DNA from: Escherichia coli
GTDB taxonomy: Bacteria; Pseudomonadota; Gammaproteobacteria; Enterobacterales; Enterobacteriaceae
Length of the DNA stretch: 64,000 nt
NCBI RefSeq assembly: GCF_050920415.1
Contig: NZ_CP169309.1
Strand: one strand, 5' to 3'
Notes under the pieces: model-generated
The model's input: the letters and a program-made list of their open reading frames with translations, nothing else
Databases searched by the model: none
Told to the model about the DNA's origin: nothing
Shown: positions 1,514 through 36,102 of the stretch, one piece after another
Numbering within the stretch: position 1 is the first letter of the stretch
Layout of the letters: every line of letters begins with the position of its first letter
Program-made: the position numbers and the translations under genes

Positions 1514-3064
1514 ATGCCCACTTCTCATGAAAATGCACTGCAACAACGTTGCCAGCAAATTGTCACCAGCTCAGTACTTAGCCCGGAGCAGAAGCGCCAT
1601 TTTCTGGCGCTGGAAGCAGAAAACAATCTGCCTTACCCACAGCTTCCTGCCGAAGCCCGCCGCGCGCTGGATGAAGGTGTAATCTGCGATATGTTTGAAG
1701 GTCATGCGCCGTATAAACCGCGCTATGTCTTACCCGATTACGCCCGTTTTTTGGCCAACGGTTCCGAATGGCTGGAGCTGGAAGGCGCAAAAGATCTTGA
1801 TGACGCACTCTCTCTGCTGACCATTCTTTACCACCACGTTCCTTCGGTCACATCGATGCCGGTCTACCTGGGGCAACTGGATGCGTTGTTGCAACCGTAT
1901 GTTAGAATTCTAACACAAGACGAGATCGATATTCGAATAAAACGTTTCTGGCGTTACCTCGACAGAACCCTGCCAGACGCCTTTATGCACGCCAATATTG
2001 GCCCATCTGATTCACCCATTACCCGTGCGATTTTACGCGCAGACGCAGAGCTGAAGCAGGTTTCACCGAACCTGACTTTTATCTACGATCCTGAAATCAC
2101 CCCTGATGACCTGCTGCTGGAAGTGGCGAAAAACATCTGTGAATGTAGCAAACCGCACATCGCCAACGGTCCCGTGCATGATAAAATTTTCACAAAAGGG
2201 AGCTACGGGATTGTGAGCTGTTACAACTCACTGCCGTTAGCGGGTGGTGGCAGTACGCTGGTACGCCTCAACCTGAAAGCCATTGCCGAGCGCAGTGAAT
2301 CGCTGGATGACTTCTTTACGCGCACTCTACCGCACTACTGCCAGCAGCAAATCGCCATCATCGATGCGCGGTGTGAATTCCTCTATCAACAATCACACTT
2401 CTTTGAGAATAGCTTCCTGGTGAAAGAAGGGCTGATTAACCCTGAACGTTTTGTGCCAATGTTTGGCATGTATGGGCTGGCGGAAGCGGTTAACTTGCTG
2501 TGTGAAAAAGAAGGAATTGCCGCACGTTACGGTAAAGAAGCCGCCGCAAATGAAGTGGGTTATCGCATTAGCGCGCAACTGGCGGAGTTTGTCGCCAATA
2601 CCCCCGTGAAATATGGCTGGCAAAAACGCGCCATGTTACACGCACAGTCGGGGATAAGTTCCGATATCGGCACCACGCCGGGCGCGCGTTTGCCGTATGG
2701 CGATGAGCCAGATCCGATCACCCATCTGCAAACTGTCGCCCCGCATCATGCTTATTATTATTCCGGCATCAGCGACATTTTGACGCTCGACGAAACCATC
2801 AAACGTAATCCGCAGGCGCTGGTACAGCTTTGCCTCGGTGCCTTTAAAGCCGGAATGCGTGAATTTACCGCCAATGTCAGCGGTAACGATCTGGTTCGCG
2901 TTACCGGTTATATGGTGCGTTTGTCGGATTTAGAAAAATATCGTGCCGAAGGTTCACGTACCAATACCACCTGGCTGGGAGAAGAAGCCGCACGCAACAC
3001 TCGTATTCTGGAACGCCAGCCGCGCGTTATAAGCCATGAACAGCAGATGCGCTTTAGTCAGTAA
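1514..3064 (+). CDS. yjjI: glycyl-radical-enzyme-like protein YjjI (PFL-like)
   Basis: 516-aa product starting [15 protein letters not shown]; synteny with yjjW activase. Confidence 0.85.
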
Positions 3065-3899
3065 GATTATCCCCTTCTCCTGCGTTGACGGGCCAGGCAG
3101 TCGTCTGGCTCTGTTTTTACAGGGCTGCAATCTGCGCTGCAAAAACTGTCACAATCCGTGGACGATGGGGCGCTGTAATGATTGCGGTAAGTGCGTGCCA
3201 CAGTGTCCGCATCAGGCGTTGCAGATTATTAACAGCAAAGTAGTGTGGAACGCAGCCGTCTGCGAGCAGTGTGATACCTGTCTGAAGATGTGTCCGCAAC
3301 ATGCCACGCCGATGGCGCAATCCATGAGCGTGGATGAGGTGCTTAGACATATCCGCAAAGCGGTGCTGTTTATCGAAGGGATAACGGTAAGCGGCGGCGA
3401 AGCCACGACCCAGCTGCCGTTTGTGGTGGCGCTGTTTACTGCCATCAAAAACGATCCGCAACTGTGCCATCTCACCTGTCTGGTGGACAGTAACGGCATG
3501 TTGAGCGAAACCGGCTGGGAAAAATTACTCCCAGTGTGCGACGGCGCGATGCTCGACCTCAAAGCGTGGGGTGGCGCGTGCCATCAACAGCTAACCGGAC
3601 GCGATAATCAGCAGATCAAGCGCAGCATTAGTCTGCTTGCCGAGCGCGGCAAACTGGCAGAACTGCGTTTGCTGGTAATCCCAGGCCACGTGGATTATTT
3701 GCAGCATATCGATGAGCTGGCGGCGTTTATCAAGGGTCTTGGCGATGTTCCGGTACGCCTGAACGCGTTTCATGCTCACGGCGTGTATGGCGAGGCGCAA
3801 AGCTGGGCGAGCGCCACGCCGGAAGACGTTGAGCAATTGGCTGATGCGTTACGGGAGCACGGGGTGAGCCGATTAATATTTCCGGCGCTGTATTTGTGA
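3036..3899 (+). CDS. yjjW: glycyl-radical enzyme activating protein (radical SAM, ferredoxin-type Cys clusters)
   Basis: CKNCHNPW radical-SAM Cys motif plus two CxxCxxC clusters; overlaps yjjI end. Confidence 0.85.
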
Positions 3900-34170: not shown

Positions 34171-34638
34171 CTAGTTAATACACTGAGTGCGGATATATTC
34201 CTGCGCCCCTTCCAGCTGCTTCTGCATCATCATCAACCGCTCTCTGAGAGTGAAATAATCCCGTTCAACTGTGTCTGCCAGTCGGGGGCCGGTTGCATTA
34301 TCCACGCCGGAGGTGCCGGTGGCTTCACGCACGGTACCGGAGCAGGTGGCGTTGATCCGCAGGCGCTTACGACCAGCGGCAACATCAGCACGCAGAGTTT
34401 CATTTTCAGCTCTCGCATCGGCTAATTCCCTCGAGTATCTGGCATCAAGTGCAGCGACATCACGCTGGCGTATCTGCATATCAGTAATTGTCGCGTTCGC
34501 CAGCTCCAGCTCTCTGACTTTTTTATCGCGCTGCGCTTTGTAGGTGATGGCGTTATCGCGGTAATGATTCAGCCCCAGACCAAGCGCACCACAGGCTACC
34601 AGCAGGACAATAATCACCACACACAGAACACGGTTCAT
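34171..34638 (-). CDS. Rz: i-spanin Rz
   Basis: N-terminal [22 protein letters not shown], coiled-coil periplasmic domain; lambda Rz-like. Confidence 0.85.
34233..34418 (-). CDS. Rz1: o-spanin Rz1 (embedded in +1 frame of Rz)
   Basis: [22 protein letters not shown] lipobox, Pro-rich ...[27 protein letters not shown] as lambda Rz1. Confidence 0.8.
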
Positions 34639-34766
34639 ATCCCCCTCACCCCATCATCCCCGACGAAGACAACATCATCCAGCCTAAGAGCAACCAGCAT
34701 TAGTGAAAATGAAATGCCGACGATTACACAGAGGATCTTCGCCAGCGTTATGAGCTTGTCTGACAT
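34635..34766 (-). CDS. 43-aa single-TM peptide, translationally coupled to Rz (ATGA overlap)
   Basis: [43 protein letters not shown]; gagga RBS; stop overlaps Rz start. Confidence 0.45.
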
Positions 34767-34778
34767 GCTTAATCCTCT

Positions 34779-35039
34779 TCACGATTTCAACGCAATGACC
34801 AGTTTTGCCAGCCCATACAGCATCGGAGACACAGCAATACCGACCGCCACCCACTTAATAGCAAAAGCCAGCGCTCTGCTGATGTCATCAGTTACAGGCG
34901 CTTTCAGTTCAAGGCCGTTTTTCATAGTCAACCTCAACAGAATTCGTTTATACTTTTCCATGTTCTCCCTTGCCTTATCCAAGGTCAGAAACACAAAACC
35001 CCGCTTGCTGCCAACAAACGGGGTTTTACTTTTATTCAC
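34779..35039 (-). CDS. 86-aa C-terminally membrane-anchored protein between endolysin and Rz
   Basis: C-terminal TM AFAIKWVAVGIAVSPMLYGLAKLVIAL; same strand within the lysis cassette. Confidence 0.45.
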   Translation of the reverse strand: MNKSKTPFVGSKRGFVFLTLDKARENMEKYKRILLRLTMKNGLELKAPVTDDISRALAFAIKWVAVGIAVSPMLYGLAKLVIALKS

Positions 35040-35116
35040 TTAGGTTTTGCCAGTTCGCAGGATTTCGTGTTATCCGTCCGCGTTGGTCAACGTCATTTTT
35101 CAGCAAAATATTCTGC

Positions 35117-35650
35117 TTATCTGTCGATTCCCCAGCACGCCAGCGCGCTCTCCTGGTCACGACGGGATATCTGACCGTAACAGTTGTTTGAGCGGATACG
35201 GCAGTCTCTGCCACCGTCCTTAATCCACCAGCGAATCGCTTCACACGCTCCCCTGCGATCGCCTGCATTAATTCGTTTATAAAACGTCGACGGGAAACAC
35301 TTACCGGGGCCAATGTTATACGGGCAGAATGACGCGATCCCCGCTTTCTGGGGTTCAGTCAGTGGCACTTTGATGTTTTTCGCCACCCATGCCAGCGCCT
35401 TATCACGTTCAATGGCGTTAACCCGGTCGCATTTTTCCTTTGACAGCTTCATGCCAGGAATAACAGGCTTACCATCCACCCGGGTGGCTCCACGGCAGAT
35501 GGTCCAGATCCCCGCACCATCACGGTATGCCGTGGTGTGGTTACCTTCCTTTTCATCCAGAAACTGGTCGAGGATTTCAGGCGCAGGCGCACCTGCGGCA
35601 ATCAGCGCCAGAACGGCAGCCGACAGACCGTATTTGATTTTGGTGTTCAT
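35117..35650 (-). CDS. R: SAR endolysin (GH24 T4-lysozyme family, signal-anchor-release type)
   Basis: N-terminal Gly/Ala-rich TM YGLSAAVLALIAAGAPA; catalytic E-x8-D-x5-T (EGNHTTAYRDGAGIWT). Confidence 0.85.
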   Translation of the reverse strand: MNTKIKYGLSAAVLALIAAGAPAPEILDQFLDEKEGNHTTAYRDGAGIWTICRGATRVDGKPVIPGMKLSKEKCDRVNAIERDKALAWVAKNIKVPLTEPQKAGIASFCPYNIGPGKCFPSTFYKRINAGDRRGACEAIRWWIKDGGRDCRIRSNNCYGQISRRDQESALACWGIDR

Positions 35651-35778
35651 GGATATTTATCAGGATTTATCGGTTCCGAATCCCTGGATATGTTAAGTCT
35701 TCAGCCTGCCAGTGGTGGGCACTGGTGTTTTACCTGATGGCTGAAATATATCTGACAATTCCCGTCGAGGATTTAGCA

Positions 35779-36093
35779 ATGTATAACGATGAACATAAAT
35801 ATACCGCCTGCATGCAGGCCATGAATGAACAATTTAAATCAGCATTCCTTAAACTCATTCAGCAAAACCACAAAGCAGTAAAATCCATTCAGGCTGAGCC
35901 GTATGGACACCTCACACCACCAACTCTCGACATTATGTCCAGAATATTAACACCAGCCATGCTTCTACGTCTGAAAGACAATATAAATGACTGGTTAAAC
36001 GAAGAATTAAACTACCTTGAATGTGAGTGGGATCATCATTACGCCAAATCACAAAAAGAACGCATCTTCCGTCGATTATCCGGCAACAGATAA
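35779..36093 (+). CDS. hypothetical protein (inserted gene inside the lysis cassette, convergent)
   Basis: Low-GC ORF MYNDEHKYTACMQAMNEQFKS... with agga RBS; possible upstream in-frame ATG at 35725. Confidence 0.4.
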   Translation: MYNDEHKYTACMQAMNEQFKSAFLKLIQQNHKAVKSIQAEPYGHLTPPTLDIMSRILTPAMLLRLKDNINDWLNEELNYLECEWDHHYAKSQKERIFRRLSGNR

Positions 36094-36102
36094 CGAGCCA
36101 GC

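Follow-up and report, generated by a model that had tools for sequence, protein, structure and literature searches.

Among the lysis systems closest to the one considered here, S21 68/71, P1 LydB, LydC and LydD, and P2 LysA are small cassette membrane proteins that set the timing of lysis rather than execute it, P2 LysA being an accessory lysis membrane protein with a timing role. The three P1 proteins are accessory lysis membrane proteins in a cassette with a signal-arrest-release (SAR) endolysin (PMC9025707). The releasin gp25 of phage Mu, a DUF2730 protein, is small, membrane-tethered and mostly cytoplasmic, is encoded a few genes downstream of the SAR endolysin and affects SAR endolysin release, also that of 933W-type R (PMC9239132). 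XECs191 of Escherichia coli O157:H7 Sakai, a predicted inner-membrane protein with one transmembrane helix, is among 465 intergenic open reading frames (ORFs) called translated by ribosome profiling, with 30.0 reads per kilobase per million (RPKM) in the transcriptome, an RPKM of 12.6 in the translatome and a coverage of 0.55 in LB medium (PMC5597208); EDL933_1392 is the same protein and is directly followed by the spanin gene Rz (PMC4765031). Here we describe two small ORFs, ORF1 and ORF2, in a stretch of 64,000 nt from E. coli (contig NZ_CP169309.1 of assembly GCF_050920415.1), referred to as the window. The lysis genes of the E. coli prophage in the window lie on the minus strand, and both small ORFs are located between the lysozyme gene R and Rz. 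ORF1 and ORF2 are real genes of two families of very small inner-membrane proteins, termed families A and B, whose gene boundaries, family membership, selection, mosaic context and prevalence are documented below. The small ORFs occupy a recombination-prone slot, extending from a hairpin to Rz, in lambdoid (Shiga-toxin-type) phages of E. coli and Salmonella. The ORFs have already been catalogued, in PHROG, as 'hypothetical protein' in RefSeq and as XECs191, but no description of the slot as a shuffled, multi-family arrangement was found in the literature searched. With regard to function, a literature search for ORFs between R and Rz, or for prophage small RNAs (sRNAs) located there, found only two ribosome-profiling catalogues.

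Like ORF2, XECs191/EDL933_1392 belongs to PHROG 4906, has a single predicted helix and lies directly upstream of Rz; it differs in its normal tail, ...FFSTAWRVLTLSGLVG, and a short N-terminal extension, whereas ORF2 carries an 11-nt deletion and ends in another tail. By analogy, the Mu gp25 releasin can be regarded as the nearest functional analogue of the small ORFs. ORF1 is in the releasin position, as the next gene after the SAR endolysin gene R. However, gp25 has an N-terminal helix, an N-out/C-in topology and an anionic cytoplasmic domain of ~72 residues, whereas in ORF1 the helix is C-terminal, the cytoplasmic part (~30 residues) is basic with a net charge of +4, and the releasin signature PF10805 (DUF2730) is unmatched; also, a pinholin, S, is present in this cassette. 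As in the dual start of S21 68/71, translation of ORF1 could begin at either of two sites, and the products would differ by a basic N-terminal segment. S21 68/71, the P1 Lyd proteins and P2 LysA differ in having no sequence relationship to ORF1 and ORF2, which have one helix each.

ORF1 and ORF2 are real genes

Chance ORFs can be ruled out because the called frames are under purifying selection and because the 521-nt region is present in 1956 of 5426 complete E. coli genomes, 1272 of the 5426 matching with at least 80% query coverage (the A-B arrangement). Within E. coli, family A has a ratio of non-synonymous to synonymous polymorphism (pN/pS) of 0.10-0.13, with 11 of the 16 variable sites of the helix segment (residues 23-60) at third codon positions, and between the window and Salmonella the ratio is 0.20 (22 synonymous and 13 non-synonymous differences). 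The other frames of family A give values of at least 0.8, except for the register-matched antisense frame (0.21). Family E, found in the slot of related phages, has a pN/pS of 0.21 between E. coli and Salmonella. Selection on families B and D is weaker than on A (0.44-0.55 within E. coli), the called frame still being the lowest. Overall, frames shifted on the coding strand have ratios close to 1 or higher. ORF1 looks intact and constrained. An antisense 159-aa ORF on the plus strand (34564-35043) was rejected: it is omitted by PGAP, the RefSeq annotation pipeline, its length changes with the spacer class, and selection is strongest in the sense frame (0.10 versus 0.21-3.4 antisense).

The cassette around the two genes contains the following features:
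34171-34638, minus strand: Rz, i-spanin of 155 aa, Pfam PF03245 (Phage_lysis) 8.1e-49, PHROG 13
34233-34418, minus strand: Rz1, o-spanin lipoprotein embedded in Rz, Pfam PF06085 5.8e-21
34635-34766, minus strand: ORF2, 43 aa with an ATG start, 11-nt-deletion allele of family B (PHROG 4906)
34779-34961, minus strand: ORF1, 60 aa (MEKYKRILLRLTMKNGLELKAPVTDDISRALAFAIKWVAVGIAVSPMLYGLAKLVIALKS), tail-anchored small membrane protein of family A (PHROG 1115, related to 4493)
34986-35027, minus strand: terminator-like hairpin just 3' of the endolysin gene, with a 15-bp stem, a 3-nt loop and a U-rich tail
35028-35116, minus strand: conserved non-coding stretch from the R stop to the hairpin, from an alignment of E. 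coli and Salmonella loci
35117-35650, minus strand: R, SAR-type endolysin of 177 aa with the N-terminus MNTKIKYGLSAAVLALIAAGAPAP, Pfam PF00959 (Phage_lysozyme) 2.7e-24
36747-36962, minus strand: S, class II (phage-21-type) holin with the dual start MYQMEK

The original prediction for this locus had placed two small membrane-protein ORFs between the SAR endolysin and Rz/Rz1, and this is borne out: both are in the ORF listing, are flanked by genes with Pfam matches and are hydrophobic. It had further described the first as a tail-anchored protein of 86 aa with its own ribosome-binding site, of which only the layout stands. The 86 aa come from the ORF listing, in which the ORF1 frame starts at a GTG (34779..35039), but the 26 additional upstream codons are the hairpin, the GTG has no Shine-Dalgarno sequence and the frame is broken in phage PhiR12_1, where a 1-nt insertion disrupts the long ORF and leaves the 60-aa ORF intact. 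The ATG at 34961, on the other hand, is preceded by AAGGGAG, and the 60-aa form is called both by PGAP and by phage annotators; hence, the start of ORF1 is assigned to this ATG. The Kyte-Doolittle profile of ORF1 peaks near the C-terminus at 1.90 (19-residue window, residues 38-56), above the usual transmembrane threshold, and only 4 residues follow the helix. Eight Lys/Arg residues are found on the N-terminal side of the hydrophobic peak versus one on the C-terminal side, and AlphaFold2 predicts a short N-terminal helix at low confidence and a long helix spanning residues 23-59 with a predicted local distance difference test (pLDDT) score of 85-90. The modelled shape and the charge distribution are as expected for a tail-anchored protein in N-in orientation whose cytoplasmic helix is basic and amphipathic. 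Met13 is encoded by another in-frame ATG, with a GAGG Shine-Dalgarno sequence six bases upstream, and short family members begin at the equivalent of Met13; therefore, a long and a short ORF1 isoform may both be made.

For ORF2, the predicted length of 43 aa and the ATGA overlap of its stop with the Rz start (34635-34638) are both correct, but the overlap, which had been read as coupling to Rz, is the product of a deletion. All other alleles contain 11 nt (TTTTCTTTCCA or a close variant) that are missing from ORF2, and their loss shifts the frame past the usual stop and on to the Rz ATG. Normal family B genes have 43 codons ending ...FLSxAWxxLxxxGL(V/L)G, with SGL(V/L)G directly before the stop in all normal alleles, and a distance of 7-11 nt separates their stop, which is part of GGGGTGA, from Rz or from the small ORF that follows. 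Among the sampled loci the deletion allele is found only in L008 and L009, and the region has matches of at least 99% in 23 E. coli genome records. The PHROG 4906 profile matches ORF2 with 1e-14 over residues 1-28 only, versus 2.1e-23 over all 43 residues for the normal allele, and in normal B alleles the tail has a pN/pS of 0.55 in the normal frame versus 0.89 in the frame used by ORF2 of the window. The hydrophobic peak of ORF2 (Kyte-Doolittle 2.51, 19-residue window, residues 11-29) also exceeds the usual transmembrane threshold; 14 residues follow the helix, and this tail is acidic in the deletion allele. Judged by its sequence, ORF2 is probably impaired or altered here, its conserved C-terminal tail being lost, and this applies whichever reading of its function is right.

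Relatives of the two genes are widespread among phages. By tblastn against phage records, B was found in 276, most Stx1 and Stx2 phages included, A in 14 and E in 46, and family B is mostly unannotated among the matches listed; the same type of search against phages with the family member F gave no match. Intact A and B are present in the PhiR12 phages, whose hosts on record are E. coli K-12 MG1655 and E. coli C. When 1.84 billion representative proteins were searched with a profile, only 20 clusters were returned, all of the same narrow family and all consisting of short proteins with the motif MKNGLExDAP that end in ...LKS or ...IRWW, and two scans of a contig collection with one genome per species gave nothing relevant.

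A recombination-prone slot between R and Rz

The organisation of the slot was compared in viral contigs from IMG/VR: 80 loci with an endolysin at least 94% identical to R were fetched, and the end of R and the start of Rz could both be placed in 75. One to four tiny single-helix ORFs are located ahead of Rz in 74 of these 75 loci. The ORFs can thus not be considered 'extra' in a cassette that is normally S-R-Rz/Rz1, as had been suggested, and S and R are not adjacent in the window either; a search for homologs beside Rz in other prophages, which had been proposed as a check, did find relatives. ORF1 matches phrog_1115 with 1.2e-46 and phrog_4493 with 1.5e-29. In shuffle tests A groups with D and F, and C with E, while B stands alone; the small ORFs thus amount to about three families, placed in PHROG 1115/4493, 6632 and 4906, all of which are function-unassigned. 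Among loci with R at least 94% identical there are 17 spacer-length classes, and such presence and absence among collinear relatives is a trait of morons. The slot contents, with the distance between R and Rz, include:
None (direct coupling): spacer 0 nt, 1 IMG/VR locus
E only: spacer 301 nt, 18 IMG/VR loci
F only: spacer 339 nt, 2 IMG/VR loci
C-B: spacer 429 nt, 2 IMG/VR loci
A-D: spacer 441 nt, 1 IMG/VR locus
A-B with deletion (window type): spacer 481 nt, 2 IMG/VR loci, plus the window
A-B: spacer 490 nt, 12 IMG/VR loci
Frameshifted A, then B: spacer 503 nt, 1 IMG/VR locus
C-B-A'-D: spacer 645 nt, 20 IMG/VR loci
189-aa antirepressor-like gene, then B: spacer 991-1006 nt, 13 IMG/VR loci
A (frameshifted in one locus), B, then a 311-aa DNA methyltransferase: spacer 1427-1429 nt, 2 IMG/VR loci
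Antirepressor-like gene, B, D, then a Dam-like methylase: spacer 1901 nt, 1 IMG/VR locus

In the 645-nt class, which is the commonest (for instance L028), a 38-aa copy of the A C-terminus with a GTG start comes 2 nt after B. In L003 (654-905), a 1-nt difference fuses the B N-terminus with the A C-terminus, resulting in an 83-aa protein with two helices (P0091). This fusion was not accepted as the general 'true' gene, as it is seen in a single 1.3-kb read-assembly contig and, in the common form, a stop intervenes, after which translation could restart at a GTG. The arrangement extends to Salmonella, whose prophages have a SAR endolysin gene, the hairpin, A and Rz behind a different holin family (PF16080), and in Salmonella phage FSL SP-016 an E-like ORF stops 2 nt ahead of Rz. 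The FSL SP-016 locus (L099, 1695-1805) also contains an unannotated 36-aa hydrophobic ORF (MSKRDVSALCFLMAAAVAISGNDGWGWLIFAGIIIL) that is ATGA-coupled to the endolysin stop.

The stop of the last small ORF is typically within 1-11 nt of the Rz ATG, or the ORF and Rz overlap, and in 3 of the 75 loci a methylase gene stands between the last small ORF and Rz. This spacing raises the possibility, which we regard as improbable, that the small ORFs are cis-acting leaders, in which translation up to the Rz start delivers ribosomes, and perhaps holds the mRNA at the membrane, where the hairpin or cargo genes have come to stand between R and Rz, while the peptides are largely incidental. Such a function would account for conserved C-terminal codons that double as the Shine-Dalgarno sequence of Rz (...CGTTGGTGGTGA in D, E and F, and GGGGTGA in B), for the replacement of one family by another, unrelated one, for the weak constraint on B and D, and for the fact that even the frameshifted ORF2 of the window finishes on the Rz start. 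However, amino-acid selection on A and E is strong and includes the conserved non-membrane motif MKNGLExDAP, several loci have two to four small ORFs and thus more than coupling needs, the methylase gene, and not a small ORF, directly precedes Rz in three loci, and family members also occur away from Rz.

At the other end of the slot, the 96 nt around the hairpin fold at -31.1 kcal/mol (z = -3.1). The hairpin is conserved in the E. coli and Salmonella loci, is absent only from the antirepressor class and is the left edge of the variable slot. Between it and R, the stretch 35028-35116 contains blocks that do not vary between the phages of E. coli and those of Salmonella, in particular CGGATAACAC(G/A)AAATC, and its core GGATAACAC is retained even in the antirepressor class, which is without the hairpin. 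Rfam gave no match in the R-Rz region, this conserved stretch included.

A consensus promoter scan, which is a weak method, revealed no promoter-like site on the coding strand between the hairpin and ORF1, and no terminator was found after ORF2. A hairpin upstream together with the lack of a coding-strand promoter-like site fits late-only expression. On the plus strand, a promoter-like site with a 9/12 consensus match only, TAGTCA-18-TATACT, is present at 34925-34954, inside ORF1 codons 3-12; combined with the hairpin, which is bidirectional, it would give a ~75-nt RNA (34925-35036) antisense to the ORF1 ribosome-binding site. Hok-like toxins are small and hydrophobic, as is ORF1, and one could imagine a type-I-toxin-like module in which ORF1 is a small hydrophobic toxin whose ribosome-binding site is controlled by an antisense RNA that begins within ORF1 and terminates at the hairpin; the ~75-nt RNA would indeed cover both the Shine-Dalgarno sequence and the ATG of ORF1. 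We consider this highly improbable, as promoter-like sites in the region are fewer than expected by chance (2 found versus 4.6 expected), the gap has no Rfam match and the proteins no match to a toxin family in Pfam, and the hairpin is kept without family A in other classes.

Possible roles of the small membrane proteins

We tentatively favour the view that ORF1 and ORF2 are dispensable, late-expressed inner-membrane peptides that modulate membrane steps of lysis, because selection acts at the protein level, a small ORF before Rz is nearly universal in this lineage and tightly coupled to it, the upstream hairpin is terminator-like and not followed by a promoter-like site, and intact forms are carried by phages with laboratory strains as their recorded hosts. 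According to this proposal, ORF1 and ORF2 would be transcribed only within the Q-antiterminated late operon, and their translation would directly precede that of the i-spanin, to which it would be coupled. ORF1 would then insert into the inner membrane in an N-in, tail-anchored manner, exposing a short basic amphipathic helix to the cytoplasm, and ORF2 would insert via its N-terminal helix. Their likeliest role would be to shift the timing of membrane depolarisation and of SAR endolysin release; helping the i-spanin seems less likely. The pinholin, the SAR domain and Rz are all conceivable targets, and slot content does not tell them apart, since it does not track the Rz type; the holin family is identical in all sampled loci, so that a comparison of holin type with slot content is uninformative.

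The original prediction had suggested an antiholin/holin-like pair, a regulator of SAR-endolysin release or spanin accessory factors, any of which may apply, but homology gives no indication of such roles. No Pfam family was found for ORF1 or ORF2 at E <= 1, holin, DUF2730, spanin and toxin families being unmatched, and eight small proteins searched against NCBIfam and PADLOC (anti-phage defence) had no match. Neither ORF has the periplasmic coiled coil of an i-spanin, with only 4 (ORF1) and 14 (ORF2) residues beyond the helix, or a visible lipobox, and Rz and Rz1 are separately present. With holins they share at least one predicted transmembrane helix each and a location in the lysis cassette. 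It could thus be proposed that ORF2 and ORF1 form a second holin/antiholin pair, either as halves of a class-II-like two-helix holin or through co-assembly of the ORF1 helix with the pinholin. The 83-aa B+A fusion provides two helices, ORF1 has two in-frame starts with a Shine-Dalgarno sequence at each, and the ORF1 helix aligns with transmembrane domain 2 (TMD2) of the pinholin at a BLASTP E value of 0.002 in a single comparison (block-shuffle p = 0.004). That pairwise similarity is suggestive, but the profile-profile match of the A family to S21-type holins is not significant (hhalign probability 3.6%, E = 0.012), and homology to TMD2 was not used as evidence. Besides the lack of a Pfam holin match, the fusion comes from one short read-assembly contig and is 1 nt from the common unfused form, the order in the window, A then B, is the reverse of that in the fusion, and a cognate dual-start pinholin is already there. 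We therefore judge a second holin pair to be quite improbable, slightly more so than a leader function.

Several observations weigh against a role of ORF1 and ORF2 in lysis. Neither has homology to holin, antiholin, releasin or spanin families by Pfam or hhalign, ORF2 is a frameshifted allele in a prophage with another frameshifted gene, and the ribosome-profiling signal of XECs191 is weak and comes from uninduced cultures. The slot is dispensable: R and Rz are directly coupled in two K-12 prophages, DLP12 and Qin, and also in one of the loci that share R; its content is freely shuffled without visible co-variation with holin or Rz type; and it also carries cargo genes, namely the antirepressor and DNA methyltransferases. 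In addition, divergent A-like genes adjoin tail-fibre and tail-chaperone genes in Salmonella prophages, once as a tandem pair (L094, L096, ~2800-3200), and a PHROG 6632 (E-type) member lies between baseplate spike and wedge genes in phage SEN34 (L098, 1962-2099). Because family members occur in tail modules, a strictly lysis-specific reading is weakened.

In the main rival explanation, the ORFs are moron-type cargo without a role in lysis, that is, mobile genes that aid the lysogen or the infected cell, for instance by superinfection exclusion at the inner membrane, and the R-Rz gap is a tolerated insertion site. Small membrane morons such as HK97 gp15 act by blocking the entry of DNA, and lambdoid small membrane morons of this kind are likewise variable among close relatives and located inside late operons, including tail modules. 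The antirepressor and methyltransferase genes in the same gap of other loci, the different gap contents of near-identical cassettes, the A and E relatives beside tail-fibre, tail-chaperone and baseplate genes, the XECs191 footprints without induction, and the narrowness of a family restricted to temperate enterobacterial phages all speak for such cargo. However, a moron typically comes with a promoter and a terminator of its own; here, with no promoter-like site between the hairpin and ORF1 and no terminator past ORF2, there is no evident sign of independent expression. The ORFs are tightly coupled to Rz, no PADLOC match was obtained, and spontaneous induction can account for the weak uninduced signal. 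On balance, we regard moron-type cargo as rather unlikely and retain the modulation of lysis as our working proposal.

A more far-reaching form of that proposal would be that families A/D/F, B and C/E constitute an unrecognised fourth component of the pinholin/SAR-endolysin cassettes of Shiga-toxin-type phages, acting as small inner-membrane regulators, possibly with dual-start isoforms, that determine when the SAR endolysin is released or when the spanins act. We consider this possible but somewhat doubtful.

Surrounding genes and implications

The N-terminal segment of R is weakly hydrophobic and Ala/Gly-rich, as is typical for SAR endolysins, and the catalytic motif E-X8-D-X5-T, as defined in PMC9239132, is present. 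Between S and R there are a frameshifted member of PHROG 1085 and an ORF on the plus strand. The former (36103-36743, minus strand) is in the position of the 'DUF1327 containing protein' of PhiR12_1 and of YdfR of Qin, and the latter (35725-36093) belongs to PHROG 1853. In related loci the S-R gap, 35651-36746 in the window, measures 7, ~400, ~600 or ~1100 nt, which points to a second mosaic hotspot. Just upstream of the holin gene, at 37260-37458 on the minus strand, there is a strong match to the STnc100 sRNA family (Rfam RF02076, 148.7 bits), and published prophage Pas sRNAs are likewise located upstream of holin genes. Further upstream of S and downstream of the tRNA genes, TerB-family and DUF3927 genes, together with tRNA genes, are found at 37524-38542 (minus strand). 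These genes sit where Stx phages carry the Shiga-toxin genes, and the prophage hence looks like an stx-negative relative of Stx prophages.

Small ORFs before Rz are common, not exceptional, in most Shiga-toxin-type phages. Lysis timing sets the burst size and, in Shiga-toxin phages, also toxin release. If the small ORFs modulate lysis, the three-part phage-21/933W cassette of holin, endolysin and spanin would be incomplete, and if they are a fourth component, they would set the timing of both phage and Shiga-toxin release. Should they have no role in lysis, they would still represent a clear case of tiny, selected and recombining membrane-protein genes that are mostly missed or mis-started by annotation pipelines.

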